From assembly GCA_025999335.1 (NCBI GenBank), contig AP024681.1, positions 523,547 through 587,546 of the forward strand: 64,000 nt of DNA. Direction: 5' to 3'. Source of the DNA: Candidatus Parcubacteria bacterium. GTDB lineage: Bacteria; Patescibacteriota; Minisyncoccia; UBA6257; HR35. Positions 31,180 to 52,818 of the stretch are shown in pieces. A model generated the notes under the pieces. The model made no database searches and had not been told where the DNA came from. It was given only the letters and a program-made list of their open reading frames with translations. Numbering within the stretch: position 1 is the stretch's first letter; the number at the start of each line of letters is the position of its first letter. A program made the translations under genes and the position numbers.

Positions 31180-31710
31180 ATGCAAAAAATTGCTTTTATT
31201 ATAGCTAAAAGATATTTTCGAGATGAAGAATTTTTTGTGCCAGCTAGGATGTTAGAAAATGCTGGTTATGAAGTAGTTGTTGTGAGTAATGCTAAGAAAG
31301 GAGAAAGTGCTGTTGGTGCAAATGGCGGTGAGGTTGTTGTTGATTTAGAATTAGAAAATTTAAATCCTGAAAATTTTGATATGGTAGTTTTTGTTGGTGG
31401 TCCAGGAGCTTTGGAAAATTTGGATAATGAAATTAGTTATAAAATTGCCCAAAAAACTGTTGAGTTGAAGAAAAAATTAGCAGCGATTTGCATTGCGCCA
31501 ACGATTTTAGCTAAAGCTGGAGTTTTGAAAGGCAAGAAAGCAACCTGTTGGTCAAGTGAAGAAAACAAAAAACCAATTAAAGTTTTAGAAGAAAATGGCG
31601 CAGAATATACTGGTGAAGATGTTGTTCGCGATGGGGATTTAGTTACTGCCAATGGTCCAGCAGCTGCTGAAAAATTTGGTAAAATATTATTAGAAATATT
31701 GAAAGAATAA
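31180..31710 (+). CDS. DJ-1/PfpI-family protein
   Basis: VVFVGGPGA motif. Nucleophile-elbow Cys in AAICIAPTILAKAG. Confidence 0.75.
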   Translation: MQKIAFIIAKRYFRDEEFFVPARMLENAGYEVVVVSNAKKGESAVGANGGEVVVDLELENLNPENFDMVVFVGGPGALENLDNEISYKIAQKTVELKKKLAAICIAPTILAKAGVLKGKKATCWSSEENKKPIKVLEENGAEYTGEDVVRDGDLVTANGPAAAEKFGKILLEILKE

Positions 31711-31752
31711 AGAAAAGAAAGTTCTCTACAAAATAAAAACAACAATCATTAT

Positions 31753-31805
31753 TCCGGGGTAGTTCAGTGGTACCTGCCTACCGGCAGGCAGGGAACGCGC
31801 GGCTG
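31753..31805 (+). pseudogene. Degenerate 5' half of tRNA-Asn, ending inside the anticodon and carrying a 20-nt palindromic insert in the D-loop
   Basis: tccggggtagttcagtggta + [cctgcctaccggcaggcagg] + gaacgcgcggctg matches nt 1-34 of the intact tRNA-Asn at 32052 apart from the insert. Sequence then diverges (cataat...). Confidence 0.7.
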
Positions 31806-31821
31806 CATAATATAAAATAAA

Positions 31822-32061
31822 ATGAATTATTACGTGTATGTTTTGAGAAGTTTGAAAACAGGAAAACATTATATAGGTATAAGCAAAAATCCAGAGAAGA
31901 GACTAAAAGAGCACAACAAAGGGGATAGTAAATTTACGAAAGGTCATAGACCATGGGTTTTGGTTTATAAAGAGTTTGTTGGTAATAGATTAAAAGCTAG
32001 AGTAAAAGAAAAAGAATTGAAAAGATCATACACAAAACGAAAAAATTTTATTCCGGGGTAG
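31822..32061 (+). CDS. GIY-YIG nuclease-superfamily small protein, 79 aa
   Basis: MNYYVYVLRSLKTGKHYIGISKNPEKRLKEHNKG is the classic GIY-YIG motif (YVY...YIG...R..EH). The stop codon lies inside the first 10 nt of the intact tRNA-Asn. Confidence 0.7.
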   Translation: MNYYVYVLRSLKTGKHYIGISKNPEKRLKEHNKGDSKFTKGHRPWVLVYKEFVGNRLKARVKEKELKRSYTKRKNFIPG

Positions 32062-32123
32062 TTCAGTGGTAGAACGCGCGGCTGTTAACCGCGATGTCGT
32101 AGGTTCGAATCCTACCCCCGGAG
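32052..32123 (+). tRNA. tRNA-Asn(GUU), intact
   Basis: Hand-folded. Acceptor TCCGGGG/CCCCGGA. D-arm GTTC-AGTGGTA-GAAC. Anticodon stem CGCGG/CCGCG with loop CTGTTAA, giving anticodon GTT with A37. T-arm GTAGG-TTCGAAT-CCTAC. Discriminator G. Confidence 0.85.
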
Positions 32124-33710
32124 CAAAGAGGACTGATTTTCGCTTAAATTCTCAAAATCCCTATTAAAATCTTGCTTTTCTTGATTTTTAGCTGGTTCGA
32201 ATACACCCTCTTTCTCTAACTCACCAGGAAGATCCATTATTCGAACCGTAAATATAGGCTCAATCTTTACATTCAGCTTTTTATCCTTTACTATAAATTC
32301 AGAACCTATACACTTTAAAATAGTCCTTTTAGTGGCAATATCTCCGTTAAGATAAGCTTCTTTTATCTTTCCCACGATATTTACATAGTCAATAGCATAA
32401 TCAATCCATCTATCATCTTCATATTCTTGTTCTCTTAACATAGTTTCAATAGCTTGCTTTCTTTTTCTTAGCGGTTCAATATTCCTTTGAAATTCCTCCT
32501 CAGTAATCTCTCCGCTTGATTTCATATTTATTAAGTTATCAATCTGATTAGTTATAGCAGAATACATTCTTTTATAATGACCTAAATTCTTTTCTCTTTC
32601 TTCTTTTCTTTTTCTTTGTTCTTCTTTCAAAGTACTAATAGCCCAGTTATGAATAGCTTCAGGAATGCTAATATTTGATAAAACTTCTAAAATTTCATTT
32701 TCTAACTCCTCCTCTCTTATTGGTTTTTGATGGCAAATTCCAGGATAATTTTTCTTTTTAGCACATTCATAATAAACATATCTCAGAACCCTACCATTTT
32801 TGTTTCTTTTCAATTTTTCATAGCTAGTTAAAACACCACCGCATTCACCACATCTTAATAAGCCTCTAAACATATGAACGATTTTCCTCTTTTTAGGACT
32901 TCCTTTTCTATTTAAAATTTCTTGAACCAATAACCAAGTTTCTTTATCAATAACAGGCTCATAATTTCCTTTATACCAATTACCAGAACCTTTAGGATAT
33001 TCAAACTCACCATAATAATCAGGACATCTTAACATTGCATAAAATTTACTCGGAGATAATCTTTTGCCATATCTATTTGTTAATCCCCACTCATCAACAG
33101 CTATTCTATAAACTTCTTTAGGAGTGTATTGACCACTTGCTAATGTTTCAAATACTTTTCTTATAATATGAAATCTTTCTGGATCAGGAAAATAGTTATG
33201 TTCGCCTTTAGGAGAATATTTGTTATTGAGATAACCCAAAGGAGCTAATCCTGGTTTAAATCCTTTTTCAGCTTTCTTTCTCAGCCCTCTTTTAGTATTA
33301 GTAGCGAGATCTCTAATATACTGGTTAGCCATTCCAGTTTCTACAGCCCATAATAAAGCGTTATCTTCTGGCTTATAAACTCTTTCTGGTGTTCTAATTT
33401 CTTTAATTATTTCTTTTTGTAAAAGCCATTGAATTGTTCCTGAATCAATAGGGTTCCTGCTAAGTCTATCAACTTTCCAACATAAAATAGCATTAGCCTC
33501 TCCTTTTTTAATTTTTTCAATCATTAAGTTAAAAATCTCCCTTCCCGGCTCTTTAGCACTTTTAGCTTCTGTTAAAATATCAACAACTTCTAAACCCTCT
33601 TTTTCTGCTAATTTTTGTAATTCTTCAACCTGAGATTCTAAAGATAAGACCTGTCTATCTTCTGACTCTGAACTTTTTCTAGCATATATAATGTATCTAA
33701 GTTTTCCCAT
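32112..33710 (-). CDS. Large serine recombinase/integrase
   Basis: The N-terminal resolvase catalytic domain has IIYARKSSESEDRQ (catalytic Ser) and VDRLSRN. A recombinase domain and a Cys-rich zinc ribbon (CGECGG...C..C) follow. The 3' end, including the stop, overlaps the last 12 nt of tRNA-Asn. Confidence 0.8.
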   Translation of the reverse strand: MGKLRYIIYARKSSESEDRQVLSLESQVEELQKLAEKEGLEVVDILTEAKSAKEPGREIFNLMIEKIKKGEANAILCWKVDRLSRNPIDSGTIQWLLQKEIIKEIRTPERVYKPEDNALLWAVETGMANQYIRDLATNTKRGLRKKAEKGFKPGLAPLGYLNNKYSPKGEHNYFPDPERFHIIRKVFETLASGQYTPKEVYRIAVDEWGLTNRYGKRLSPSKFYAMLRCPDYYGEFEYPKGSGNWYKGNYEPVIDKETWLLVQEILNRKGSPKKRKIVHMFRGLLRCGECGGVLTSYEKLKRNKNGRVLRYVYYECAKKKNYPGICHQKPIREEELENEILEVLSNISIPEAIHNWAISTLKEEQRKRKEEREKNLGHYKRMYSAITNQIDNLINMKSSGEITEEEFQRNIEPLRKRKQAIETMLREQEYEDDRWIDYAIDYVNIVGKIKEAYLNGDIATKRTILKCIGSEFIVKDKKLNVKIEPIFTVRIMDLPGELEKEGVFEPAKNQEKQDFNRDFENLSENQSSLLRG

Positions 33711-33799
33711 TATTTATGTGAATTATAATAAATTTTTCTTAAAATCGCTAAACTTTATTAAATTAATTTCGCCCATTTTTTCTATGTTTTTTGTATATA

Positions 33800-33960
33800 C
33801 CCCCTCAACGATGTCCCGAAATTCCAGTTACTTAACCTGACCTAACCAGGGGGTTCTTATATAGGACAGGTTAGGTTGAAAAAGGGTATTTAACGATGTC
33901 GGAAAATTCCAACCTGACCTGCCTATATAAACACCCCCTTAGGTAGGTTAGGTTGACAAC
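33800..33960. repeat. Iteron and inverted-repeat cluster in the non-coding gap between integrase and primase genes. Candidate att or ori.
   Basis: aacgatgtcSgAaaattcca occurs twice (33806-33826 and 33891-33911). aacctgacct occurs twice (33834-33843 and 33911-33920). aggttaggttga occurs twice (33868-33879 and 33945-33956). Three ccccct / aggggg runs also occur. Confidence 0.6.
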
Positions 33961-33980
33961 TTTTTCACATAACTAATAGG

Positions 33981-35924
33981 TTAGAACTGAATGTCTAAAA
34001 TTGATAAACTCTCTTTACTCGATACTTCTGCATCTTCACTCTTTTCGTTTAAAAACCAACGATATGTAGCTCCCTTTTTATTTTCTTTTGGGTTTCTGCA
34101 AATTGAACCCTTATCATAAAGGCGGTCTAATGAAGCTTTTAGTTTTTTTCTTGTTATTTTGATTCCTTCATTCTCGAGTTCTTCTTTTATTGCGCTATAG
34201 ATTTCTGATGTTGTTAGCTCTTTTCCAGAATTTTCCTGTAAAAAATTAATTACAGCTTCTTCAATTAAAATGTTTTCTTCTTCAGAGATGTTAATTGATT
34301 TCAATTTCCCATTTTCGTCGAATTCATAAACAAGCTCTTTTGGTTCAATTATTCTTCCCTGCGATCTTAAAATTCTTCTTTTTTTATTATTTTCATGAAT
34401 GTTTAGGGTAATAAGAATGTCAAACATACCAGCGAGTGCGTGTGTTCCTGCAATTGACTTAATCCCTTGTTCGCTTTTGATCGTATGATGCAGTACAATT
34501 AGCGTTGTCCTTCTTTCTTGAAGAAATCTCAAAAAATTTAGCAATAAATTGCTTACTTCACTAGCAGAGGTTTCGTCTCTAATGTCATTACCAACGATAC
34601 TTCTTAGAGTATCTATAATCAAGATATCGGGGCTTAAATTTTTCACAATCTCATTAACTCCTTCAATCCCTAACGCTAATGCTGGTAGTATCAAAAGATT
34701 CTCCTTAATCTTTTCGAAATCCAAGCCTTCAAATAGACCAAACTCTTCATAATTTTTGATTCTTTTCTTCCATAAACTTTTAGATTCTTCTGAGAGATAT
34801 AGAATTTTATAATTTTCAGCCCATCCTAAACAATTTCTAAAAATAAGCTCTGTTTTTCCAGTTTTAGGATACGCAGAAAGAATATGCGTCCACCCCTTAA
34901 CAATAAACCCATTTTCTCCAATTAAGGGTATGAACTCTAGTTGATCTTCTGTTTCGCTTAAGAGATCATCGATAGTAAAGAAGCCCTTCTTTAATTTTTC
35001 GATATAGTCATAATTTAATGTTTTTAAATCACCGCCCTGTTGGTAAAATTCGGTGACATCTTTCCCGCAGGGGAGATTTATTATATAAACATCGCTCACT
35101 GAAAGGCTTAATTTGTTTATTAGATTATTCAACCAAGTTTTTCCAGTCTCATCACGGTCTGGAATAAGAAAAATTTTCTTAAACCTCCTAATTATATCAA
35201 CCCATTCATCAAGCCATTTAGTTGTTCCGCCTCCTGCGATTGTCAGGACGTTGAAACCTTCTTGATTCAGTAAAATAGCATCCAATTCTCCTTCTACCAG
35301 ATATATTTCTTCCTTTTCAAAGTCAACACAGTTAATTGGAAATAAAGTTTTCTTTGTTCCCGATCTTAACCACTTATACTTTTCCAGGTTTGGATTTTCC
35401 TTTAAGGGATCACGCCTGATTTTATAGTTTACAATTTTTCCGCTTTCGTCAAAAATTGGGATCCCAATCCAATAATTTCCTTTTTTATCTTTAAAACAAC
35501 TAAAACCAAATTTAGCAATAGTTTCATCAGTTAGTTTTCTTTTCTTTAACCAATCCTTTAGCTCTTCCGTTAAATCAATCAATTTATAAAACCCTTCACT
35601 AGCTGCCTCTTCTGTTTTTTCTTCAATATCATCAATTTCTCTTAAATAATGTTTTTTTAGATACCTAATGGCATCTTTGGTTGTTAAATTATGACAAATT
35701 TTAATGAAAGAAATAACATTTCCGCCTTTTCCGCAACCAAAGCAATACCAACTATTGGTTTTAGGATATATAGTAAATGAAGGATGGTTATCGTTATGAA
35801 AAGGACATTTTATTTGAGGTGTTCTTCTATTAGGAATTGCAATATCAGTTTCTCTTTGAATTACTTCTTTAATATCGAGATTATTTATTTTTTCAAATAT
35901 GTTATAATTATTTTGTAAAGACAT
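33981..35924 (-). CDS. Bifunctional phage/plasmid-type primase-helicase (zf-CHC2 + Toprim primase fused to a RepA/DnaB-like P-loop ATPase)
   Basis: CHC2 zinc finger (CPFHNDNHPSFTIY...WYCFGCGKGGNVISF). Toprim (LVEGELDAILL). Walker A (AYPKTGKTEL) and Walker B (ILIIDTL) motifs. Confidence 0.75.
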   Translation of the reverse strand: MSLQNNYNIFEKINNLDIKEVIQRETDIAIPNRRTPQIKCPFHNDNHPSFTIYPKTNSWYCFGCGKGGNVISFIKICHNLTTKDAIRYLKKHYLREIDDIEEKTEEAASEGFYKLIDLTEELKDWLKKRKLTDETIAKFGFSCFKDKKGNYWIGIPIFDESGKIVNYKIRRDPLKENPNLEKYKWLRSGTKKTLFPINCVDFEKEEIYLVEGELDAILLNQEGFNVLTIAGGGTTKWLDEWVDIIRRFKKIFLIPDRDETGKTWLNNLINKLSLSVSDVYIINLPCGKDVTEFYQQGGDLKTLNYDYIEKLKKGFFTIDDLLSETEDQLEFIPLIGENGFIVKGWTHILSAYPKTGKTELIFRNCLGWAENYKILYLSEESKSLWKKRIKNYEEFGLFEGLDFEKIKENLLILPALALGIEGVNEIVKNLSPDILIIDTLRSIVGNDIRDETSASEVSNLLLNFLRFLQERRTTLIVLHHTIKSEQGIKSIAGTHALAGMFDILITLNIHENNKKRRILRSQGRIIEPKELVYEFDENGKLKSINISEEENILIEEAVINFLQENSGKELTTSEIYSAIKEELENEGIKITRKKLKASLDRLYDKGSICRNPKENKKGATYRWFLNEKSEDAEVSSKESLSILDIQF

Positions 35925-35976
35925 TTTGTATCATAAAGCCTCGCTACTCTAAAAAGATAGCGGGGCTTTTTCTTTT

Positions 35977-36150
35977 TTAATTTTGACCTTTAAGATGTTT
36001 AAGTACTTCTTCAATATCAAATCTTCTAATACTTCTTTCGTAACTTCTGATTGATTTCAGAACACCCATCTTCTCCCACCTTCTTAAAGTCTGTGGATGC
36101 ACGTTTAGGATTTTTGCAAGCTCTCCAATCTTGATAAATTTTTTCTCCAT
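35977..36150 (-). CDS. MerR/excisionase-family HTH protein, 57 aa. Candidate Xis or regulator.
   Basis: The reverse complement translates to MEKKFIKIGELAKILNVHPQTLRRWEKMGVLKSIRSYERSIRRFDIEEVLKHLKGQN. The I.ELA..L.V...TLRRWE..G.L pattern is the Xis/MerR HTH_17 signature. Not in the track because it is under 60 aa. It overlaps track ORF 36026-36313 in another frame. Confidence 0.5.
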   Translation of the reverse strand: MEKKFIKIGELAKILNVHPQTLRRWEKMGVLKSIRSYERSIRRFDIEEVLKHLKGQN

Positions 36151-36515
36151 TTTTTGCTTTATTTTTTAATGATCGACCTTTAATTTTTTCAAAATTGAAA
36201 ATAACTTTATAAAGCTCCAAAATTTTTATTTTCTGTCTTAAAACTTCATCTTCTTTTAGCTTCAAGCCCGTTTCTTTGAATGCCTTTTCAAATTCTTTTA
36301 AATCTCTTTCCATTTCTCTTAAATTCTTACATTTGCTATAGGGGGAGTAAGGGAGATTTTTTTAAATATTTACTCTCACCATAGCTAAAAAATGTAGAAA
36401 AAATTAGGCAAAATAAAAAAGGAGTCTAATTAGCCTTCTTAAATTTCTAGCTCTTGACAAGGTTTAATCAAAGCAAACAAATCTTATTAGTACTGTTGTT
36501 TTTTTATTAATTTTT

Positions 36516-38159
36516 CTAAAAACTTTTAACTGCTTTTATAAAATCTCTGTAATCCTCTTTATTAACACTCCCCAATTTTAAAAGAGAACATAGCTCATTT
36601 AACGCTCGCCATGATTTTTGAGATTTTTCTAATATTTTCAGTATTATTTCCTTTAACTGAGGTAAATCATCGAGAGCATCAGCCAACATCCATAACAAAT
36701 GAATTTTTTCTCCCTCGAATGGAGTCATATTTTGATCTGCAAAAACATCTGAATAATTGCTTTCAAACTTTTCTACAAAAATAATAGCCTCTTTTATCGA
36801 CTGAAATTCTGATAAAATTTTTGATTTAAGATCTTTTAATTCTTGCCTGTTTTTATTTAAGTGCCTTTGTCTTGTTCTAATTTCCTGTTGATTTCTTGTA
36901 TGAATAGGTGGGTTAACTTTTACTATACCACTTTTTACATAGTTAATTAATTGAGATTGTTTTTTAAGTTCTTTTATTTCTTTCTTCCCATTTTTAATCA
37001 GGCTATTAAATCTCATAAACAGTCTTATAGTGTGCCTCAACTCATATTCTTTAGAATTTTTTATCTCTAAAATAGTTTTTAATCTTTTTCTGAATTCATT
37101 GTTTTCAGTTAATAGATAGCAAAGAACCCTTTTAGTATATGTTTTTTCGTCTTTAAATACTTTTTTGTTTTTTATCCGTTCCCTCATATATAGCCTCCAA
37201 TCATCAGGGTTGAACTCATCATAAAAAACATAATTTTTTAGCAAAGAACCATAAATATCAGGAATTTTGAATTTTTCAATAAAGTTTTTGGTAATTATTT
37301 TATAAGGGACAATCCTGTTTTCTTTATAAGAGACCTCTAATAAAGCTAAATAACCATAAACATCTTCCGTGTTAATTTGTTGTCCCTTAAGTATGTTGAA
37401 GTTTGTAAGATTATCAATATAAACGAAAGTTTCGCTTAATGGAATTTCTAAAATGTTTCTAATTTTCCCTGCATTCTTTAATTTCTGGTTGTTATTCAGT
37501 TCATTAATTTTCTTTTCTAATATTTCTAATGTCCAAAACCTATAATCTCTAAAAACTTTTTCTAAAGAAAAATTTTCGTCTAATTTCTTATATTTTTCTT
37601 CAATTTTCTTTCTTAAATTTAAAAAATCTTGAACATTAATTTTATATTTTTTTCGAAACTTTGCTACCTCTTTTTTGAAATTGTCTAAATTATTAAAATC
37701 CCAGTAAGATAAATATCCATCAAAATAAAGAAGTAATTTTTCCTGAATTATTTCGAATTTATCTAAAGTAGCAGCTTTTTTAAAAAGACTAACTACTTCA
37801 TTCTCATTATTTTTTAAGTAATTTCTAATCACCCCCACAGCATCTCCAATTTTTTCATCTACATATTCCGTCTCTTCTTTTTTTCTAAAAAATTTTTCTG
37901 TATGACTTAACTCCCCGCCAATTTCTTTTATTTCATAATCTAAATCGAAACCGCATTTTTCTAAGAAAAAATTGGATGTTAAATAATCGATAATGTAATC
38001 CACTTGATCTTCTCTTAACTTTATTTCCTTCAATTCTTTAGGGTAAATAGGAAAATAATAAATATCATCAGGTAGTTTTTCGAATAATCTATAACCATTT
38101 CCGCTTTTCAATTGCTCTTTAATACCATTTTTAATTTTCTCTACTAGATTTTTTATCAT
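36516..38159 (-). CDS. Hypothetical 547-aa protein of unknown function. Island cargo.
   Basis: Long uninterrupted ORF, Lys/Glu/Asn-rich. I could not recognise any Walker, nuclease, HTH or transmembrane motif. Confidence 0.4.
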   Translation of the reverse strand: MIKNLVEKIKNGIKEQLKSGNGYRLFEKLPDDIYYFPIYPKELKEIKLREDQVDYIIDYLTSNFFLEKCGFDLDYEIKEIGGELSHTEKFFRKKEETEYVDEKIGDAVGVIRNYLKNNENEVVSLFKKAATLDKFEIIQEKLLLYFDGYLSYWDFNNLDNFKKEVAKFRKKYKINVQDFLNLRKKIEEKYKKLDENFSLEKVFRDYRFWTLEILEKKINELNNNQKLKNAGKIRNILEIPLSETFVYIDNLTNFNILKGQQINTEDVYGYLALLEVSYKENRIVPYKIITKNFIEKFKIPDIYGSLLKNYVFYDEFNPDDWRLYMRERIKNKKVFKDEKTYTKRVLCYLLTENNEFRKRLKTILEIKNSKEYELRHTIRLFMRFNSLIKNGKKEIKELKKQSQLINYVKSGIVKVNPPIHTRNQQEIRTRQRHLNKNRQELKDLKSKILSEFQSIKEAIIFVEKFESNYSDVFADQNMTPFEGEKIHLLWMLADALDDLPQLKEIILKILEKSQKSWRALNELCSLLKLGSVNKEDYRDFIKAVKSF

Positions 38160-38940
38160 TTTTGCTAAAATTTTATATTTCCTTATTAAAAAGTCAACTC
38201 TTAATTAAATTTTACCTAAAAGTTATAAAGCTTAAACCTTTTTAAAAGCTTACGGGCTTAAATGTATTTTGTGAAAATTTAAAAATTCCGCAGATTTTAC
38301 AAAAATTAAAAATCTTTATTATATTCACCACGAAGTCTATTCCTTGCTTTAAAAATAACTCCCTGTACCCCTCCCCTGGCTATGTTTAAACAAGCGCTCT
38401 TTACCACTATAGTTTCACTTTTTACTTTTTAAGTCATTCCATTATCTAACAAGAAGGAGATAATTTTTAAAGCAGAAATTTTTACTATAAAACACCATAA
38501 CACCATAACACTAAATTCTACAATCTGAATATTTAAATTAAATTTCAAAAATCCTCTCAAAAAACTAAGATTCCAAGCATAATTAAACCCTAAATTCCTT
38601 AAACAAAATTCACAATTTTTGATAAAATTTAATTAATAAAGGCTGAGAACAATGGTTGATAAAAATAATAAAAAGAATGATAAAAAATTTGTAGAGTTGA
38701 TCTGGCATGGAAAATATAAAGAATTTAATTTGAAAGATAAAATTTCTATCGAGAGACCAAATCTGCCGTTCCAGTTTATAGAAACAATTAATGAACCTAT
38801 ATAAATATGGAACAGCTTAAATATTTTCTAAATTAATTAAATTATACATAGCAACAGTTAGGTTATGAACAAGTTACTAGAAATTCGCATAAATTGCCCT
38901 AAGGAATATTTAAAAATAAATTAAAAAATAATGTTAAAAA

Positions 38941-41685
38941 ATGAGAAACTCGACAAACAATTGGAAGACGGTAGTATTAAAAAAGTTTGAGGAACTAGAT
39001 TATAAGAAAGAGATTCTTACAATTTTTGATGAAAGAACCAAAAAGATAGATTTTTCAAGTTGTATTAAGCAACATCAAAAACAGAACTTCGAAGACGAAG
39101 CTTACATAAGAGCCTATCTTGTTTTGAGACTCATAAAAGAGCTTAATTATCCATGTGAAGTGATAGAGTTAGAAAAAAAATATTCCATAGGTCATCCTTC
39201 TAAAAAAGAAGCCCGTTTAGATATTCTTGTTAAGACTAAAAGAGGAAATCCATTCATGTTATTAGAGTGCAAAACCCCAGATAACTTTATCAAAGAAAAA
39301 GATGATGCTCTAGAAAATCAACTTTTTGCAATTGCTAAGCACGAAATAAGAGGCGAAATAAAACCAAAATACTTAGTCTTATATACAATAGATATTGAAA
39401 ATGGAAAAGTTTTAGATAGAGCAATTATAATAGATTTCGAACAATACTCAACTTATGAAGATTGGAAAGAAGCAGGAGAATCTTCCTTGGATGAGATACC
39501 AGCAGATTATGGTATAGCAAAAAAATATACGTATGCCAACATAGAAAGACCAAATCCAAATGGTGGTTTAAAACCCCTAAGAAAAGATTATACTCTTGCA
39601 GATTTTGAAAAGCTAAGAGTAGATCTACATAACAAATTATGGGCTGGAGGTGAGGCTGATTACAACGATATCTTCTATCATCTAATAAAGATAATGCTCG
39701 TTAAAATATATGATGAGTTATTTACGCCCGAAGGAGGAATTTATGACTTTCAAATATTTTATAAGAATGGTGAACCAGAAACCCCAGAGGAACTAGCAGA
39801 AAGATTAGAAAAGAAATACAAAATCGCTTTAAAAGAACTTTTAAACTATGATGATGAAAAAATAAAGGAAATACCTTTGATTGAGAGAGATAAATTTACT
39901 TATGAAAAGTTATTCTATGCCGTAGAGAAACTCCAAGAAATTTCTTTAACAGAAAATATTCATAGCAAAGGAGAAGATGTTTTGGGCTTATTCTTTGAAA
40001 GCATATTACAAAACGAATTTAAACAAAGTAAAGGACAGTATTTCACTCATAAGAATATTGTAAGATTTTTAATTTATGCATTAGAATTAGATAAATTAGC
40101 GATAGACAAGTTGAATCAAACATATCCACACTTTCCATACATTATAGACCCTGCTGCTGGTAGTGGCACATTTCTTGTTGAAGCAATGAAAATTATTACA
40201 AAAGAAGTGTTGAGAAATAAAGATAAATTAAAACTTACTAGATCTTTAAAAGAAAAAATAAAGGACTTAGAAGACCCTAATAGGAAACATCGTTGGGCAG
40301 AAGATTATATTTATGGAATTGAGCCGAACGCCCGTTTAGGTTTAGCAACCAAACTAAACATGATTCTGCATGGCGATGGAAACATGAATATTTTTATTGA
40401 AGATGGTCTAATGCCTTTCAAAATAAAAGATGAAGCGTTTTACACGAGAAAGTGGAAAGGGAAGGATGTTGGTTTGTTGGCTGAGGGTGAAAATACGAGT
40501 ATTTACCCAAAACCAATAAATGGACGTTTTGATGTGGTACTATCAAACCCGCCTTTCTCTATGAAAATTGAGGCGATGAAAGCTTATAGGTACATAAAAG
40601 ATACCTTTGTTTTTTACGATAAGAAAAATTCAGAAAACTTATTTATAGAAAGATGGTTCCAGTTATTAGCCCCCAAAGGAAGATTAGGTGTTGTCTTGCC
40701 AGAAAGTGTTTTTGATACTAAAGAAAACCTATATATCAGGAATTTTCTTTATAAGTATTTCAAAATAAAGGCTATCATCAGCCTGCCTAAGGAAGCTTTT
40801 GAACCTTACACATCAACGAAGGTTAGTTTGTTAATTGCAGAAAAGAAAACCGATGAAGAAATTAAAGCATGGGAGGATAAATGGAGAGAGTATGCAAACA
40901 AATACAATAAATTAAGAAATTCAGAAATAATCCGGTTTTTCATAGAGAACGATAAAATTCTTAACTCTTTCAGAACACTTTTGGACAAACATAATATTGA
41001 AATAGATTATTCAAAAGTTTTGGTTCATGACTTGTTGGATGATAATTTGAAAGGTGAAATTGAAGCAAAAATATTACAAAATGATAAAAATAAATTTAAG
41101 GATTTGGTAAAGAAAATAAAATACTTTAAAGATAAATATAAACTGGACGAGTTAGATACTGAAGAAAATAAGAAAATTCTGAAGGAATTTCTGAAACAAT
41201 TTTATCCACAAGAGCAAGAGCTTAAGAGTTTTAAAGAACTCTTAGAATATGTTTATGATGATGTTCTGGAAATAGCCACTTTGGACTATCCACAAATTGA
41301 AGGGCAAAACAATTACTGTAATAGCTGGTGGGTTTTTGGAGAGGTATCTAAGCACTTTAATTATTCGATATTCTACGCTGAAGTTGAAAACATTGGGTAT
41401 AAGAGAACAAAGAGGGGCGAACAAGACAAAGACATTCCAATAAAAGATGAAAATGGAAATATCATCGCTTTTAAAAACGATTTCTTTAAAGTTAAAGCCG
41501 AGAAAGTGAAGAGAACATATTGGGTTAAGAAAGGGGATAAAGTAGTTCAGGAAGAAAAAGAGGAAATTATCAAAACCGACATAATAATAGATACAGAAAA
41601 TCCTGAAACTGTGCTTGACCATATAAGAAGTGCAAACATTTGGTCAGAAAATTCCAATTTTAATTTTGAGGTGAAAGAAAAATGA
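38941..41685 (+). CDS. Fused restriction endonuclease / N6-adenine DNA methyltransferase (Type IIG/IIB, BcgI-A-like)
   Basis: The N-terminal HSDR_N-like PD-(D/E)xK domain has RLDILVKTKRGNPFMLLECK. The central gamma-class MTase has motif X (GQYFTHKNIV), motif I (IDPAAGSGTFLVEA) and motif IV (VLSNPPFS). The C-terminal ~350 aa is helical and of unknown role. Confidence 0.7.
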   Translation: MRNSTNNWKTVVLKKFEELDYKKEILTIFDERTKKIDFSSCIKQHQKQNFEDEAYIRAYLVLRLIKELNYPCEVIELEKKYSIGHPSKKEARLDILVKTKRGNPFMLLECKTPDNFIKEKDDALENQLFAIAKHEIRGEIKPKYLVLYTIDIENGKVLDRAIIIDFEQYSTYEDWKEAGESSLDEIPADYGIAKKYTYANIERPNPNGGLKPLRKDYTLADFEKLRVDLHNKLWAGGEADYNDIFYHLIKIMLVKIYDELFTPEGGIYDFQIFYKNGEPETPEELAERLEKKYKIALKELLNYDDEKIKEIPLIERDKFTYEKLFYAVEKLQEISLTENIHSKGEDVLGLFFESILQNEFKQSKGQYFTHKNIVRFLIYALELDKLAIDKLNQTYPHFPYIIDPAAGSGTFLVEAMKIITKEVLRNKDKLKLTRSLKEKIKDLEDPNRKHRWAEDYIYGIEPNARLGLATKLNMILHGDGNMNIFIEDGLMPFKIKDEAFYTRKWKGKDVGLLAEGENTSIYPKPINGRFDVVLSNPPFSMKIEAMKAYRYIKDTFVFYDKKNSENLFIERWFQLLAPKGRLGVVLPESVFDTKENLYIRNFLYKYFKIKAIISLPKEAFEPYTSTKVSLLIAEKKTDEEIKAWEDKWREYANKYNKLRNSEIIRFFIENDKILNSFRTLLDKHNIEIDYSKVLVHDLLDDNLKGEIEAKILQNDKNKFKDLVKKIKYFKDKYKLDELDTEENKKILKEFLKQFYPQEQELKSFKELLEYVYDDVLEIATLDYPQIEGQNNYCNSWWVFGEVSKHFNYSIFYAEVENIGYKRTKRGEQDKDIPIKDENGNIIAFKNDFFKVKAEKVKRTYWVKKGDKVVQEEKEEIIKTDIIIDTENPETVLDHIRSANIWSENSNFNFEVKEK

Positions 41686-43076
41686 AAGTACAAAATATTA
41701 CTTTACAAAATATTTCTCGGAATTACTATCTGCGTTTAGATTATAAAATTAATGCGTATCATTCTCATATTAGAAAAGATTATAAAAATGGTTGGAAAGT
41801 AAAGGACTTCCTTAAAATTATCAAGGCAAATCAAACAAAACCAGAAAACTTTGATGAAGGATATTTAATAGAATTAGAACATATTTTAAGCGGAGATGTG
41901 GAATTGAATAATGTTAAAAAAGTTAATGAGATTGGTTCAGATAAAGTTATTCTTAATCAAGCTAATTTTGCTTATTGTAAACTGGAAACAGGTAAAGGCT
42001 ATTTTATAGCTCTTCCTGAGGACATTCCTGATTATGATGGTGTATCATTAATTGTTGGGTCTACAGAGCTAGTACCATGTAGAGTAAGCATTAATAACAA
42101 AATTGCGAAATATTATCTTACACACTTTAAAGAAATTTTTAATATGTTCCTTTCTGGAAAAACGCATAGAAGGATACATGAAATAGAATTCTTAAATATA
42201 GAACTTCCAAAAATAAAAATTAGCAATACTCTATTGGATAAGATAATTTCAATTGAGAAAGAAATCTCTAAACTTAAAACTCAAATCAAGGAACCTAAAA
42301 TTATTGTAGATGAAGTTTTCAGCAAATACTTTAAACTTGATCTGAAACAATATTCAAATTTAGAAAAGAAACATATATTTGGAGAAGATTTGTTTAACTT
42401 ATCTAAATCTGCACAACTCAGGAGTTCTCTAAAGTTTCATCATCCAAAATTTGATTTTGTTTTGAAAAAAATAAAAGAGTTCAAAACTGTAAAACTGAAA
42501 CAATTACTGAAAGAACCTGTAAGAAGAGGCGTTCAACCAGAATATGAAGAAGAAGGGGGAATCCTCGTAATAAAAACTATTAATGTAAATAAAGAAGGAT
42601 ACATTGATTTAACCGAAACCGAATTTGTTAGTGATGAGTTTTATAACAAAGTAAAAAAGAAGGCAGGAATTCAACAAGGAGACATTCTTATAACATCTAC
42701 AGGCGAAGGACGGGGGAAGGTAAGCTTATATGACTTAGATGAACCCGCAATTATAGATACTCACATATCAATAGTCAGGTGCAAAGAAGATGTGAATAAA
42801 AAATATTTAACCTACTTTTTGCTATCAAGTATGGGAGAGAACCAATTAAGTATTTTAGAGCAAGCCATTAAAGGAACCCCAGAAATTTATCCACGAGAAA
42901 TAGAAAAACTTATTGTAATCTATCCTCCCTCTGAAATTCAGAACAAAATAGTTGAAGAAATAGAGACAAAACTTAACGAACAAAGAAAAATTACCAGGCA
43001 AATAGAGAAACTAAAACAAGAAATAGATAAACTGATAGAAAAAGCAATTTTGGATAACAAACTAAAAAATGATTAA
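41682..43076 (+). CDS. Restriction-modification specificity (HsdS-like) subunit with two target-recognition domains
   Basis: The ATGA start/stop overlap with the upstream R-M gene suggests translational coupling. It is 464 aa with two variable halves separated and followed by conserved coiled-coil spacers (…ISKLKTQIKEP… and …ITRQIEKLKQEIDKLIEKAI…), as in Methylase_S. Confidence 0.6.
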   Translation: MKVQNITLQNISRNYYLRLDYKINAYHSHIRKDYKNGWKVKDFLKIIKANQTKPENFDEGYLIELEHILSGDVELNNVKKVNEIGSDKVILNQANFAYCKLETGKGYFIALPEDIPDYDGVSLIVGSTELVPCRVSINNKIAKYYLTHFKEIFNMFLSGKTHRRIHEIEFLNIELPKIKISNTLLDKIISIEKEISKLKTQIKEPKIIVDEVFSKYFKLDLKQYSNLEKKHIFGEDLFNLSKSAQLRSSLKFHHPKFDFVLKKIKEFKTVKLKQLLKEPVRRGVQPEYEEEGGILVIKTINVNKEGYIDLTETEFVSDEFYNKVKKKAGIQQGDILITSTGEGRGKVSLYDLDEPAIIDTHISIVRCKEDVNKKYLTYFLLSSMGENQLSILEQAIKGTPEIYPREIEKLIVIYPPSEIQNKIVEEIETKLNEQRKITRQIEKLKQEIDKLIEKAILDNKLKND

Positions 43077-43350
43077 GACTCTTGGGCGCGTGCGGGACTT
43101 TTTATTTAATTTTGTGAAGTTTATTTTTACAGTTCGCTAATAAACGAATATCTGATTCAAGCTTTTAGTCTTAGGTAAAATTATTCTAGAAATTTTAAAC
43201 ATTAATAATATTATTAAGTTGAAAGTAAAGAAGATGTCGAGAAGTCTAAAAGAAGGTTTTAATATCGCAAAACAACCCCAGCTGTATTCCTTATCTTCAA
43301 TTTCACTTTCCATTCTGTTTGTTTTATAATATTTTCAAGAGTTCGAATAA

Positions 43351-45144
43351 AATTTTCCCTGCGGAGGAGAAAGATTAGAAAAAGGAAAAACATACATCAT
43401 TAGATGGGAGTCCAATGGTGTTTCACATGTTTATCTTAAATTAAGAAAAGGTAATGATGCATACCCAGGACAGGAAGGAATGATATCCGGTATTATTTTT
43501 AATACAGGATTTTATCAGTGGACAGTTCCCAAAACATTACCATATGGAAATGATTACAAGATTAGGGTGATTGATGCTGATTTAATATCTTCAACAAATG
43601 TAGACACAGGACCTGTTATTGATGATAGCGATGCTTCATTTAGTATTGTCTCTTCAACAACTACTCCTTCAATCAGAGTTATTTCACCTAATGGAGGAGA
43701 AAATTGGACTATCGATTCTTATCAAAAAATAAAATGGAGCGCACTCAATGATAAAACAGTTAGTATTTATTTAAAAAGGTATATTTCTTGTCTTTATGCT
43801 CAGCCTAAGTGTCGATTAACAGAACCAATGCCTATAATTATTGCTGAGAATATTCCAAATATAGGTGAATATGATTGGCAAGTTGGGAATATTGTTAAAA
43901 AATTTGAATATCAAACTTTATCTTCAGGTAGTTATATTATTGAGATTAGAGGAAATAATTCAGGAGAAGTAGATGTTAGTGATAAACCGTTGCAAATTGT
44001 TTATACAAATAGTCCTTTAAATCCTTCAAAACAAGCTTGTATTCAGGCTACAACTTTTGCTTATGATCCTAAAAATCCATCAAAATGTCAAGAATTTTCA
44101 ACACCTTGCGATGTTCCCGAGGGTTGGCTAACAACAGATAAATGCCAACAAAAAAATACTTTCTTAGAACCTATGGAGGTGCCAGTATTGGTTATAAAAT
44201 ATTATCCTACTCAAAATGGACGAACTATTGATACTTCCATTACTTTGGATATTCCTCAAGGAAGAACTATCAAAGAACAAGATGAAATCACCAATAGTTT
44301 GAATAAAAAATTGATAAAAGCCCTAACTGAAGGAAGTAAATATCATGGTTATAAAAATTCTAATGCTTTACCTTTTTTAACTTATAAAGTGATTGCAGAA
44401 AAGACATTTTTGAAAAGATTACCTTTAACTGATAACAAAATAATAGATTACTTTAGTATTATGAAAGATCTTAATGTTTGTGATTATGTTGATAATAAAG
44501 GGGTTAAAGAAATTTGGATTTGGGCTTATGCTAGCAATTACGAAATAATGTGGGAATCTAATTTTTCATCTATTTATGGTGATATAAGTAATAGCAATCG
44601 AGACCCTAATGATTTGCCTGTTTGTAAAAAATCGTATACTGTTTACACTTATAATTATGGCAGAGAATATGCTACGGCTTTGGAGAATCATGGTCATCAA
44701 ATAGAGCATATCTTAAATTGGATTGATGGTCGAGATATAACACCAAATGATCAATGGGATAAGCTTTTATTCTGGGGTAAATTTGTTGGGCGAAATTTTG
44801 AAAATAAAATACTGCCTCCTGTTTCTGCTTGTGGTTGGATTCATTCTCCGCCAAATACAGAAAAAGATTATCATTGGTATGAGAAAACCCAAGTATTTTC
44901 AGACTGTGAGGATTGGAATCCAAATAGAACAGGCAAGAAAAAACCTGTAAACTGCGTTACCTGGACTGGTAATTCTGAATGTAAAGATGATGGCGGAGGA
45001 GAAATGTTTAAAATTTGGTGGATGCAAAATATTCCTGGCTATAAAAATGAGCTTTACTATAATAATATCAAACTAAGAAATTGGTGGGAATTTATTGGCG
45101 ATTTTGATGAAGCTTTGAAAATAGGGAAAAGTTTGACTTACTGA
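43351..45144 (+). CDS. Secreted Cys-rich beta-sandwich protein. Apparently 5'-truncated; the first ATG is at 43480.
   Basis: The reading frame is open from 43351 with no start codon. The upstream in-frame sequence …KTYIIRWESNGVSHVYLKLRKGNDAYPGQEGMISGIIFNTGFYQWTVPKTLPYGNDYKIRV is one coherent Ig-like 'Y.W.VP...G.DYKIRV' module, so coding sequence precedes the first Met. No signal peptide is present. A second Ig-like module follows, then a Cys-rich C-terminal region. Confidence 0.4.
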   Translation, partial: NFPCGGERLEKGKTYIIRWESNGVSHVYLKLRKGNDAYPGQEGMISGIIFNTGFYQWTVPKTLPYGNDYKIRVIDADLISSTNVDTGPVIDDSDASFSIVSSTTTPSIRVISPNGGENWTIDSYQKIKWSALNDKTVSIYLKRYISCLYAQPKCRLTEPMPIIIAENIPNIGEYDWQVGNIVKKFEYQTLSSGSYIIEIRGNNSGEVDVSDKPLQIVYTNSPLNPSKQACIQATTFAYDPKNPSKCQEFSTPCDVPEGWLTTDKCQQKNTFLEPMEVPVLVIKYYPTQNGRTIDTSITLDIPQGRTIKEQDEITNSLNKKLIKALTEGSKYHGYKNSNALPFLTYKVIAEKTFLKRLPLTDNKIIDYFSIMKDLNVCDYVDNKGVKEIWIWAYASNYEIMWESNFSSIYGDISNSNRDPNDLPVCKKSYTVYTYNYGREYATALENHGHQIEHILNWIDGRDITPNDQWDKLLFWGKFVGRNFENKILPPVSACGWIHSPPNTEKDYHWYEKTQVFSDCEDWNPNRTGKKKPVNCVTWTGNSECKDDGGGEMFKIWWMQNIPGYKNELYYNNIKLRNWWEFIGDFDEALKIGKSLTY

Positions 45145-45572: not shown

Positions 45573-46844
45573 TTATAATTTTAAAATAGTTTTTTTGAAA
45601 TTTGAAAACCTGTTTTCTTTAATTGACTTTCTAATTTCTTTAAATAAATTCAAAATCCAGAACACATTATGTTCAGTTAAAAGTATAATGCCGTAAATTT
45701 CTTTTTCGCGAAGCAGATGACAAATATATGCTCGTGAATATTTTCTACAAATATTACATTTGCATTTGGGATCAATAGGTTTTTTATCTGTTAAATATTT
45801 ACTTGCTTTTAAATTAATTCTTCCATTAAAACTAAATCCTGTTCCATGCCTTGCCCATCTGGTTGGAATTACACAATCAAATAAATCAATTCCTTGTTCA
45901 ATTGAATTCAAAATATCATCAATTTCTCCAATTCCCAAAAGATGTCGTGGTTTTTTATAATCAAGATAAGGCAAAGCCCAACTTAAAACTTTAATAATAT
46001 CTTTTTTACTTTTACCCAAACTTCCACCGATACCAAAACCAAAAAAGGGAAGTGAATTAATAAATTGAGCCGATTCTTTTCTTAAATCTTCATATTCTCC
46101 TCCTTGAACAATTCCAAACAAAACTTGATTTTTGGTTTTACCAAATTCATCCAAGCATTTAATTGCCCATTTATGAGTTCTTTTTAATGCTTCTTTTGTG
46201 TATTTATAATCAGACAAAGGGGAAGTGCATTCATCAAAAGCAAAAATAATATCTGCGCCCAAAATTTTTTGAACTTTAATTGAAATTTTTGGAGATAAAA
46301 ATAATTTTTGTCCATTGTAAGGATCAATAAATTCAACACCATCATCATAAATTCTAACCAGATTCTTTTTTAATGCAGATAAACGCGGATTTTTATCACG
46401 CGGATTTACGCCGATATTATTTTCTGTGTATATCCCGTTTTTTTTATTTTCCGCGTAGTTCCGCGTTAGTTCTGCAGAGTTTTTCATTTCCTCAGGAAAA
46501 ATATCTGCCACTTTTCCAACCCCATGTTCCATTCCGAAACCCAAACTAAAAACCTGAAATCCTCCACTATCAGTCATTAAAGGATAATTAATATTTAAAA
46601 ATTTATGCAAACTACCAAATTTTTTAATAATTTTATATTTTTCCTGACGAAAAAAATGAAAAGTATTAATCATAAAAATTTCAGCACCAAATTTTTTAGC
46701 TTGTTCAAAACTTAAACCTCGAATACCACCTTTTGTTGCAACAATTGCTAAATTAGGAGTTTTAATTAAACCATGAGGTGTTTTAAAAATTCCTAATCTT
46801 GCTTTTGTTGTTTTGTCTTTCTTTAATATTTTAAATTTAAACAT
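45573..46844 (-). CDS. tgt: tRNA-guanine transglycosylase (queuine tRNA-ribosyltransferase)
   Basis: LMTDSGGFQ catalytic motif. Zn site CKCNICRKYSRAYICHL (CxCxxC...H). A low-complexity repeat insertion lies around 46380-46470. Confidence 0.8.
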   Translation of the reverse strand: MFKFKILKKDKTTKARLGIFKTPHGLIKTPNLAIVATKGGIRGLSFEQAKKFGAEIFMINTFHFFRQEKYKIIKKFGSLHKFLNINYPLMTDSGGFQVFSLGFGMEHGVGKVADIFPEEMKNSAELTRNYAENKKNGIYTENNIGVNPRDKNPRLSALKKNLVRIYDDGVEFIDPYNGQKLFLSPKISIKVQKILGADIIFAFDECTSPLSDYKYTKEALKRTHKWAIKCLDEFGKTKNQVLFGIVQGGEYEDLRKESAQFINSLPFFGFGIGGSLGKSKKDIIKVLSWALPYLDYKKPRHLLGIGEIDDILNSIEQGIDLFDCVIPTRWARHGTGFSFNGRINLKASKYLTDKKPIDPKCKCNICRKYSRAYICHLLREKEIYGIILLTEHNVFWILNLFKEIRKSIKENRFSNFKKTILKL

Positions 46845-46845
46845 T

Positions 46846-52300: not shown

Positions 52301-52465
52301 TTGGTATTCATTTATTTTTACAATTTCAAATTGATAATTTTTATTTTCACTTAAAATTTTCTCTTTCAGTTCCTTTGATGATTCTTTCAAAAACGCTATA
52401 GCGTATTATAGAGGATTATTAACAGAGAAACGATTATTAAATAAAAATTTTTATCTGAAAGTTTT

Positions 52466-52521: not shown

Positions 52522-52818
52522 TCCGGGGTAGTTCAGTGGTAGAACGCGCGGCTGTACTTAGTGCAGCTTCCATCCGTAAGGATGGATGAAAAACAGGGTG
52601 AAAACGGTGAAGCCCTCTAAAGGGTAATACCGTGCCAGCCTAAGCTGAAAAGCTTTGGAAGGTGTAGAGACTATTCCTTAATGGAAGTAGGCTTAGTAAT
52701 TTTACTAAGTCGAAGCACCCCGCCCCAGTAAAACTGGGTGAAGATATAGTCCACTCCTTAAGGAAACTTAAGGGAAAGTGTAACCGCGATGTCGCAGGTT
52801 CGAATCCTGCCCCCGGAG
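52522..52818 (+). tRNA. tRNA-Asn(GUU) interrupted by a group I intron in the anticodon loop. Exons are 52522-52555 and 52781-52818.
   Basis: The 5' exon is identical to nt 1-35 of the tRNA-Asn at 32052. The 3' exon taaccgcgatgtcgcaggttcgaatcctgcccccggag completes the anticodon loop CTGT|TAA. It differs from the other copy only by a compensatory T-stem pair (GCAGG/CCTGC versus GTAGG/CCTAC). Confidence 0.8.
52556..52780 (+). ncRNA. Group I self-splicing intron, 225 nt, no ORF
   Basis: The 5' exon ends in U and the intron ends in G (omega-G). The internal guide sequence GCAGC at intron nt 8-12 pairs with exon GCUGU (P1, with a U·G wobble). R-like element AGAGACUA and S element AAGAUAUAGUCC form P7 (GACUA/UAGUC). 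P/Q-like GGGUGAAA and GCCCUCUAAAGGG segments are present. Confidence 0.7.

Follow-up and report, generated by a model that had tools for sequence, protein, structure and literature searches.

The window analysed here is a stretch of 64,000 nucleotides (nt) from Candidatus Parcubacteria bacterium (GenBank assembly GCA_025999335.1, contig AP024681.1, positions 523,547 to 587,546). Near its middle, a small open reading frame (ORF) for a GIY-YIG nuclease is lodged between a broken 5' half of a tRNA-Asn gene and an intact tRNA-Asn gene. We consider it probable (roughly 0.6) that this locus is one copy of a recurrent selfish mobile cassette, about 300 bp long, with tRNA genes as its home. It is made up of a UPF0213/SLX1-like GIY-YIG gene of about 80 codons, a duplicated tRNA half (sometimes together with flanking sequence) and at least one GC-rich palindrome. 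The palindromes interrupt the displaced, non-functional half, in its D loop or, in a mirror-image version, in its T loop. Thanks to this duplication, the tRNA gene remains whole on one side of the ORF.

The features of the window are collected in Table 1. The displaced half is in two parts. The first comprises the acceptor 5' strand, the D stem 5' strand and the D loop (canonical positions 1-21, the first 20 nt of the tRNA), and the second the D stem 3' strand, nucleotide 26, the anticodon stem 5' strand and the loop up to G34 (canonical positions 22-34). All 33 tRNA positions are identical to those of the intact gene, and an exact copy of 20 + 13 nt within 64 kb excludes a chance origin. The palindrome between the two parts has one mismatch, being one base off the perfect palindrome CCTGCCTGCCGGCAGGCAGG. 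It is predicted to form a hairpin in both the minimum free energy and the centroid folds, and the motif is unique in the window, where 0.01 matches are expected and the GC content is about 29%. At the other end of the unit, the last 10 nt of the ORF, including its TAG stop codon, are the first 10 nt of the intact tRNA, and the 5' half of this tRNA is the replacement copy adjoining the ORF. The description in the initial annotation, which was made from the letters of the window alone, is thus confirmed in all of its parts: a copy of tRNA-Asn nt 1-34 at 31753-31805 with a 20-nt palindromic insert in the D loop, broken one nucleotide from an intron site (the broken copy ends after G34, and the intron of the second tRNA-Asn gene lies at 35/36), and followed by a 79-aa GIY-YIG ORF whose stop codon lies inside the intact tRNA (TAG being tRNA nt 8-10). 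No Shine-Dalgarno sequence was found in the spacer upstream of the ORF, which is uninformative because such a sequence is present in only 6 of the 46 genes of the window. A scan of 31600-32300 for promoters and terminators gave hits no more numerous than in shuffled sequences.

Relatives of the locus were traced from close protein homologues to their contigs, in genomes and metagenomes. The same architecture is found next to tRNA-Asn at at least 14 distinct loci besides the window (L001, L002, L003 with L008 and L009, L004, L010, L011, L012, L013, L014-16, L017, L064, L069 and L070), and it was always present where the protein identity was 60% or more. The common order begins with the tRNA-Asn 5' half and its GC-rich palindrome, and goes on through a spacer and the ORF to a full tRNA-Asn. 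In the window and in at least 14 other loci the ORF is flanked by a duplicated host segment of which one copy is continuous with the gene, a layout typical of the mobile ORFs (mORFs) of fungal mitochondria. The spacer is about 0-16 nt long, except in the degenerate L017, and in most loci the ORF runs into the tRNA and has its stop codon inside it. Three different tRNA-Asn backbones have been hit (TCCGGGG..., TCCCCC(G/T)... and TCCCCGG...), and on all three of them the displaced half has 0-2 mismatches to the local tRNA; in most loci it is identical to the inner copy. Position 7 differs between L004 and L015 together with its pairing partner 66, and the displaced half follows this compensatory 7:66 change. 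In L014-16 the cassettes stand in tandem, with a period of 296 nt and 100% identity. The displaced half ends anywhere from canonical position 33 to 38 in the relatives, and its near-coincidence with 35/36 in the window is therefore not a fixed feature: the window breakpoint is one case of a general "anticodon arm" breakpoint.

With proteins that are about 48-59% identical, the same design is found on tRNA-Ser, tRNA-Gln and tRNA-Glu, the host genes being intron-less in each case. On tRNA-Ser(TGA) (L021 and L022) there are arrays; a unit combines a promoter/leader of about 38 nt with tRNA nt 1-20, a pair of GC hairpins and GAACGCGGC. Some units have the ORF (period about 392 nt) and others are without it (about 116 nt), and the real tRNA-Ser follows the array. 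On tRNA-Gln(TTG) (L029 and L031), the ORF is preceded by 5' halves that bear hairpins, and in L031 these stand in tandem. The version on tRNA-Glu(TTC) (L027 and L028) is a mirror image, with the full tRNA in front, the ORF behind it, and after the ORF a copy that extends from the anticodon stem through to the 3' end. Here CCTGCCTGACTGGCGTCAGGTAGGCAGG is inserted in the T loop of the 3' half, and about 65 nt of flank is duplicated as well (L027). The ORFs of the tandem cassettes and of those on other tRNAs are all GIY-YIG. No half-tRNA duplication was found around the relatives L005-L007, L018-L020, L023-L025 and L032.

The cassette is present at some tRNA-Asn genes and absent from their counterparts. 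In L001 it sits at a tRNA-Asn linked to genes for queuine tRNA-ribosyltransferase (TGT), queuosine salvage and an amino-acid kinase. The window's tRNA-Asn in the L001-like neighbourhood (at 52522) is without a cassette, which is found instead at the copy linked to DJ-1, and the window thus holds one occupied and one empty tRNA-Asn gene. The promoter/leader TGGTATAATAAT...AGCACTCTAAAA stands 5' of the displaced half in L001 and 5' of the bare tRNA in the window. The leader in L001 has an exact 10-nt repeat, and BLAST aligns its inner leader to the leader of the window's second tRNA-Asn. At a single nucleotide, the outer copy in L001 has T17, like the empty site of the window, and the inner copy C17, like the cassettes of L002 and L010. 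Elsewhere, L003 and L010 have CGCGG in the displaced half and CCTGG in the live tRNA, and L002 and L010 have a common cassette and diverge from the anticodon stem onward. Judging from these differences, the breakpoints of recombination lie inside the tRNA.

The ORF product is 100% identical to the NCBI protein KatS3mg097_540, from a Candidatus Parcubacteria metagenome-assembled genome (MAG). Only GIY-YIG-type Pfam families match the 79-aa protein, and they cover its whole length; the match to PF01541 scores 55.9 bits against a cut-off of 22.6 and spans residues 2-73. Among 28 homologues Y6, Y17, G19, H31 and E63 are invariant and R27 is nearly so. From what is known of the family, we take the catalytic roles to fall to the two tyrosines of the GIY and YIG motifs, the arginine and a metal-binding glutamate. 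The family profile matches UPF0213 structures best (PDB 1zg2, E=4.5e-15; 1ywl, 2.3e-13), as against 8e-9 to 6e-6 for chains of eukaryotic SLX1 and just 1e-3 for I-TevI. The intron-endonuclease model TIGR01453 (NCBIfam) matches only residues 5-35, with 23.9 bits, which is below its cut-off of 56.05. There is no second, DNA-binding domain, the protein ending at residue 79. On sequence grounds, the protein is thus a domain-only UPF0213/SLX1-like nuclease and not one of the I-TevI homing type. The prokaryotic Slx1-like group is regarded as the minimal, ancestral form of GIY-YIG (PMC1564403).

Relatives of the protein are rare and patchily distributed, with 36 clusters among 5.8 billion sequences; a scan of 185,579 species genomes gave 5 loci, of which 2 have cassettes. 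Both searches were limited to fixed patterns, and these counts are lower bounds. Scans of viral contigs for cassette proteins gave essentially nothing. It is worth adding that distant UPF0213-type GIY-YIG genes lie directly 3' of tRNA or tRNA-like ends in two further contigs. The neighbour in L005 (58-455) is a tRNA-Met, in a Fidelibacterota MAG, and that in L007 (about 2820-3290) is a T-arm/acceptor-like end, in a Parcubacteria MAG. There is no obvious half-duplication at either. These contexts hint at a wider link between tRNA genes and the UPF0213-type family.

The alternative that survives best, which we nevertheless hold to be unlikely, is that the ORF is a domesticated, vertically inherited UPF0213 nuclease with a function for the host, embedded in the tRNA-Asn transcription unit. 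The tRNA-like leader and the GC hairpin would then be a cis-acting RNA element, with a role, for instance, in processing or stability, or as a switch between mature tRNA and translatable mRNA. The ratio of non-synonymous to synonymous substitution (dN/dS) between cassette ORFs is 0.05-0.2 (about 0.1), with synonymous sites saturated between clades, and this low ratio together with the conserved catalytic residues indicates that the ORF is under purifying selection and that the enzyme is kept functional. Such strong selection, which we also count among the evidence for the cassette, would suit a host gene, as would the 12 intact ORFs among the 13 tRNA-Asn-linked ones seen in full, the conservation of both the pseudo-half and its hairpin, and the tight fit of the ORF between pseudo-half and tRNA. 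When the unit is folded as a whole, the 5' strand of the pseudo-half is also able to pair with the 3' acceptor strand of the tRNA; this is trivial and uninformative, the two 5' strands being identical. A selected alternative fold, in which the pseudo-half would pair with the 3' half of the tRNA, was considered and rejected: such pairing is not maintained in L003 and L010, where the anticodon-stem strand CGCGG of the pseudo-half cannot pair with the 3' strand CCAGG of the live tRNA. Other observations also speak against a domesticated gene. The exceptional thirteenth ORF, in L069, is broken by an internal deletion of about 55 nt that removes E63 and K67, and this decayed copy shows that the ORF is dispensable. 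The D arm has been completely remodelled between the window and L003, where it forms a 61-nt nested hairpin, and the proteins of the two are 97% identical. The patchy distribution, the tandem arrays, the solo units without an ORF, the mirror version on another tRNA and the window's second tRNA-Asn without a cassette are likewise not what would be expected of a gene fixed in the host.

The displaced halves always contain GC-rich palindromes, in the D loop or the T loop. The sequence CCTGCCTGCCGGCAGGCAGG itself is found at the same D-loop position, after GGTA, in L001, L004, L012, L013, L014-16 and L064, and it is identical between clades whose synonymous ORF sites are saturated. Other cassettes have expanded or different palindromes, of the types CCTGCC...GGCAGG and CCGCC-N3-5-GGCGG, with three in L002 and L010. 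Throughout the 190 kb of loci and the window, the motifs are nearly confined to displaced halves and to structured RNA adjacent to cassettes, with one exception. A genome repeat resembling the repetitive extragenic palindromic (REP) elements was rejected as an explanation: the motif occurs once in 64 kb, and almost exclusively in cassettes across the 190 kb. Exact copies of CCTGCCTGCCGGCAGGCAGG are also found in 35 stretches of viral contigs from IMG/VR (L033-L067), mostly of 54-68% GC, and with the exception of L064 a UPF0213 gene is absent from the DNA fetched around them. The viral palindrome could be a mini-element in its own right or a site bound by a protein. One viral contig of 29.5 kb has six copies, within longer repeats, and further examples are at L041 8396 and in L053, L060 and L061. 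In L057 (2239-2330) the palindrome lies in the variable loop of a tRNA-Met and forms a long variable arm. The palindrome sequence was not found in the searchable open-access literature.

It could be argued from these viral copies that the palindrome is the primary mobile mini-element, inserting in exposed loops of dispensable RNA-gene copies, and that its link to the ORF and the half-tRNA is secondary. The copies without a GIY-YIG gene fit this idea, as does the one in tRNA-Met. Palindromes also change rapidly in number and sequence between close cassettes (the window and L003; L002 and L011), and similar GC-rich hairpins are seen near the 5' end of introns (the P1 region), just after the 5' splice site, in L013 and L017. 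Some viral copies are flanked by short direct repeats; these are inconsistent, however, with repeats of at least 7 nt (7-14 nt) around 4 of 39 instances in the viral contigs, compared to about 1% in controls. The near-confinement of the motifs to displaced halves, and the constant insertion point on three tRNA-Asn backbones, speak against such an element, and the duplication and the ORF are not explained by it. We therefore regard it as rather improbable.

The window's second tRNA-Asn gene, which was missed by ARAGORN and by the default Rfam scan, consists of exon 1 (52522-52555), an ORF-less insert of 225 nt (52556-52780) and exon 2 (52781-52818), the exon junction being ...GGCTGT / TAACCGCG.... 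The insert matches Rfam RF00028 with 54.3 bits, the gathering score being 50. The T stem is GCAGG/CCTGC in this intron-bearing copy as opposed to GTAGG/CCTAC in the intron-less copy, a compensatory pair. Self-splicing group I introns at 35/36 have been described from tRNA-Asn as well as tRNA-Asp of Patescibacteria, a few of them with HNH genes, in a paper that mentions neither GIY-YIG nor duplications (Nakagawa et al., 2026, PMC13011429). The tRNA-Asn adjacent to the cassette has an intron in about 8 loci (L001, L002, L011, L012, L013, L017, L064 and L069) and none in about 6 (the window, L003, L004, L010, L015 and L070). The evidence for the intron is Rfam for L012 and L017, homology to the window intron for L001, L002 and L011, and reading of the sequence for L013, L064 and L069. 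Three near-identical loci illustrate how freely the two elements combine: in L002 the GIY ORF is intact and the intron retains an HNH remnant of 40 aa; in L069 the GIY ORF is the broken one and the intron holds an intact HNH-type ORF of 130 aa; and L010 has an intact GIY ORF and no intron, with the anticodon stem CCTGG/CCAGG instead of CGCGG/CCGCG. HNH-type ORFs within the introns lie at 5280-5450 in L002 (the remnant), 2761-3153 in L069 and 907-1392 in L064 (both intact), the HNH match in L064 being weak. Since the introns have HNH ORFs of their own and the combinations vary, it follows that cassette and intron come and go independently.

The initial annotation had suggested, as one of two readings, that the arrangement looks like the scar of a homing or gene-conversion event between the intron-plus and intron-minus alleles, GIY-YIG enzymes being classic intron and intein homing endonucleases. 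In its most developed form, this idea would make the protein a free-standing GIY-YIG enzyme that serves an ORF-less 35/36 intron (collaborative homing), and the broken half a scar of repair between intron-plus and intron-minus alleles. There is a precedent in phage T4, where mobE promotes homing of the I-TevIII intron in trans (PMC2790892). An intron-bearing tRNA stands next to about 8 of the 14 tRNA-Asn cassettes, the breakpoint of the half falls in the anticodon loop close to 35/36, and the presence of the intron varies at otherwise identical cassettes, with co-converted anticodon stems (L002 and L010). Nevertheless we consider the idea distinctly improbable. The same architecture is found on the intron-less tRNA-Ser, tRNA-Gln and tRNA-Glu, the end of the broken half varies, and six cassette loci including the window stand beside an uninterrupted target. 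The protein is of the UPF0213/SLX1-like type without a DNA-binding domain, and the introns carry their own HNH ORFs (PMC13011429). Alignment to 52522-52818 did establish the identity of the exons, and the loci of relatives revealed a conserved, recurrent unit and not a one-off scar. The annotation's other suggestion, that of a very small tRNA-targeting insertion, has proved much more apt: copies of the unit turn up in numerous unrelated contigs, also in tandem arrays, and on different tRNAs and in both orientations. Membership of the UPF0213 family, conserved at this locus, had been named as an outcome that would speak against homing. The protein is indeed UPF0213-like and is found recurrently beside tRNA-Asn, but its distribution is patchy, polymorphic and multi-target, which argues for mobility over a fixed housekeeping locus.

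Downstream of the intact tRNA lies an integrated element that begins with a large serine recombinase. The last 30 or so codons of the recombinase read through the conserved flank into the 3' end of tRNA-Asn. In L003, L008 and L009 the order is DJ-1, cassette, tRNA-Asn, the flank of about 80 nt, and a HIT-family gene, the homologue of window 61956-62363. The roughly 27.5 kb between (window ~32206-59712) is absent from these loci, which points to one or more islands or a rearrangement. This segment also holds the TGT, queuosine-salvage and amino-acid kinase genes and the intron-bearing tRNA-Asn; such housekeeping-looking genes are odd in this position. L070 repeats the order seen in the window (cassette, tRNA-Asn, recombinase, primase), and a serine recombinase also stands beside tRNA-Asn in L064 and, frameshifted, in L069. 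The possibility that the half-tRNA is an attachment-site remnant of an integrative element with this recombinase, which would account for the recombinase gene immediately downstream and running into the tRNA 3' end, for the similar recombinases by tRNA-Asn in L064, L069 and L070, and for the partial tRNA duplicates that integrative elements commonly leave, is hardly credible and was rejected, given that L001, L002, L003, L004, L008 and L009 have the half and the ORF with no recombinase downstream of the tRNA, and that the duplicate is a 5' half lying upstream while the island boundary is about 80 nt downstream of the tRNA. The tRNA-Asn gene is evidently a hotspot for three kinds of element, namely the cassette, the intron and the serine-recombinase island.

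Two other observations were made in this part of the window. The TGT and queuosine-salvage genes (45573-47724, minus strand) are a few kb from tRNA-Asn(GUU), which is one of the tRNAs modified at G34 by TGT. The linkage is kept in L001 (15-4172) and L069, and may be a coincidence. In addition there is a 47-nt direct repeat with 83% identity, its copies 2.2 kb apart at 50181-50227, in the region of the amino-acid kinase gene, and at 52374-52420, upstream of the intron-bearing tRNA-Asn (TTT.ATGAT.CTTTCAAAAA.GCTAT.G..T.TTATA.AGGATTATT).

Table 1. Coordinates of the cassette, the two tRNA-Asn genes and the neighbouring island in the window.
Feature	Position	Strand	Evidence or remark
Displaced (pseudo) tRNA-Asn 5' half, part A, TCCGGGGTAGTTCAGTGGTA	31753..31772	+	20/20 identical to 32052-32071 and 52522-52541
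GC-rich 20-nt palindrome, CCTGCCTACCGGCAGGCAGG	31773..31792	.	between D loop and D stem 3' strand
Displaced half, part B, GAACGCGCGGCTG	31793..31805	+	13/13 identical to 32072-32084
AT-rich 16-nt spacer, CATAATATAAAATAAA	31806..31821	+	between broken half and start codon
GIY-YIG nuclease ORF, 79 aa, minimal UPF0213/SLX1-like type	31822..32061	+	Pfam PF01541 E=5.3e-15
Intact, intron-less tRNA-Asn(GTT)	32052..32124	+	ARAGORN; Rfam 73.7 bits
tRNA-Asn 3' flank, about 80 nt	32125-32205, 59713-59790; partial third copy 52819-52836		repeated 27.5 kb downstream
Integrated element	32112-45144		begins at tRNA-Asn 3' end
Large serine recombinase (XisF/Ccr-like), 532 aa	32112-33710	-	adjoins tRNA-Asn 3' end
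DnaG-Toprim-AAA primase-helicase	33981-35924	-	
Methylase of restriction-modification module	38941-41685		
Specificity-like subunit of restriction-modification module	41682-43076		
Second tRNA-Asn(GTT), no cassette, intron at 35/36	52522..52818	+	Rfam RF00028, exon identity

Returning to the mobile cassette, a plausible way of life can be sketched. The cassette would spread between tRNA genes by homologous recombination stimulated by its nuclease, either by homing or by insertion-duplication from a circular or linear copy, with the conserved tRNA sequence serving as portable homology. All of the layouts seen (the 5' type and the 3' type, the duplication of leader or flank, the tandem arrays, and the solo units without an ORF) are those that one crossover, or the repair of a double-strand break, would yield from a tRNA gene and a unit carrying a tRNA fragment. 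A working tRNA would remain only in products whose truncated copy holds the palindrome. Transcription would probably start from the tRNA promoter upstream of the displaced half, and the cut of RNase P at the tRNA 5' end would remove the stop codon of the ORF and so limit expression of the nuclease. The nuclease might bind the palindrome or act on it as a cruciform, or the palindrome might break up the direct repeat so that the cassette is not deleted. Going further, we suggest very tentatively that the UPF0213/SLX1-like nuclease and the GC-rich palindrome together make up a self-mobilising "tRNA half-replacement cassette" of about 300 bp, in which the nuclease would recognise or cut the cruciform or hairpin and thereby start recombination; we think this specific version doubtful.

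Several considerations count against a mobile cassette. No transfer event, circular form or cleavage activity was observed, and mobility is what we infer. There is no DNA-binding domain, which leaves any sequence specificity of the nuclease for a tRNA gene unexplained. In six loci, the window among them, the tRNA beside the cassette is intact and has no intron, and a true homing enzyme directed at this sequence would cut its own host copy. Nearly all tRNA-Asn-linked ORFs are intact and strongly constrained, which fits a gene that benefits the host equally well. The fixed position of the palindrome in the middle of the half is not explained by a simple model of homing or target duplication, and with its viral copies lacking a nearby GIY-YIG gene the palindrome may be an independent element. 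Finally, duplication of the leader upstream of the tRNA is weakly supported (p about 0.008 in L002 and 0.02 in the window, not significant elsewhere).

If the cassette is mobile, it would represent an extremely small class of bacterial selfish elements, which exploit tRNA genes without destroying them, and would provide a role for a clade of the minimal GIY-YIG proteins of unknown function in UPF0213. It would be among the smallest protein-encoding mobile elements described, with tRNA-Asn, Gln, Glu and Ser as targets, and this would be the first biological role for part of the large UPF0213 family. A single essential gene of 73 nt is host to three independent elements (cassette, intron with or without an HNH ORF, serine-recombinase island), which makes the triple hotspot at tRNA-Asn a compact natural system of coexistence in very reduced genomes. 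The 20-nt palindrome, conserved across lineages, offers an interaction between nuclease and palindrome that can be tested directly. There is also a practical consequence for annotation. The cassette accounts for half-tRNA pseudogenes and odd small ORFs running into tRNA genes of Patescibacteria, and tRNA annotation is affected by it as it already is by the 35/36 introns.

A cassette of tRNA half and GIY-YIG gene was not found described in the searchable literature (open-access papers and bioRxiv). It is in principle a variant of elements already known, of the homing or mORF type, and the 35/36 intron has already been published; what appear to be new are the size of the cassette, the logic of tRNA-half replacement, the UPF0213 nuclease and the conserved palindrome. 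The closest parallel is provided by the mORFs of fungal mitochondria, which insert in a gene, bring a replacement segment and leave the native segment as a downstream duplicate (PMC3630166). In Glomus, atp6, atp9, cox2 and nad3 carry such a replacement gene end (PMC3630166), and a mORF in atp6 of Allomyces macrogynus is known from an original report cited in PMC3630166. In both systems an endonuclease ORF is inserted with a copy of the displaced segment, leaving the gene in working order and the native segment beside it as a duplicate. The endonucleases of mORFs are GIY-YIG or LAGLIDADG, and some mORFs are in frame with the host gene. The differences are that the cassette is hosted by a tRNA gene, measures about 300 bp as opposed to at least 1 kb, and encodes a domain-only UPF0213 nuclease. 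Its displaced copy is usually a 5' half and carries a conserved GC-rich palindrome, to which nothing in mORFs corresponds, and its hosts are bacteria, mostly Patescibacteria.

The Seg endonucleases of T-even phages also have GIY-YIG genes among or next to tRNA genes; SegB is a free-standing homing endonuclease in the tRNA gene cluster of T4 (PMC2330249, PMC13096335). Seg genes spread by a double-strand break followed by recombination with co-conversion of the flanks, and SegB is reported to promote segmental amplification (PMC2330249, PMC13096335), which recalls the tandem cassettes. Seg proteins, however, have more than 200 aa and DNA-binding domains, whereas the cassette protein has 79 aa and belongs to the UPF0213/SLX1 group, and Seg genes have neither a duplicated tRNA half nor a palindrome. 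In sequence family, in its size class of about 80-100 aa and in having no auxiliary domains, the cassette protein resembles the UPF0213 and prokaryotic SLX1-like proteins such as 1zg2 (BH0048) and 1ywl (EF2693). These have been described as probably vertically inherited nucleases of the repair type, of unknown function (PMC1564403), and no link of UPF0213 to tRNA-half duplication or to mobility has been reported in searchable open-access papers.

The remaining comparisons concern the tRNA. The 35/36 introns (PMC13011429), to which published Patescibacteria type the intron in the window's second tRNA-Asn belongs, use the same host gene and the same anticodon-loop region, and many cassette loci carry both; the cassette, however, lies upstream of an intact gene, is not spliced from a continuous tRNA, and also occurs without the intron. 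Islands of the tyrosine- and serine-recombinase kinds likewise target tRNA genes, keep the tRNA intact by a replacement segment and are flanked by direct repeats, but the cassette has no recombinase, duplicates a half ending in the anticodon arm (usually the 5' one) instead of the 3' end, and is about 100 times smaller. Lastly, the split tRNA genes of Nanoarchaeum and related archaea, whose separate halves are joined through complementary flanks, also have a 5' half that ends in the anticodon loop by a GC-rich, structure-forming sequence. In the cassette, by contrast, a complete tRNA-Asn is present, the half has no 3' partner, and the GC element, which is self-complementary, is placed within the D loop.

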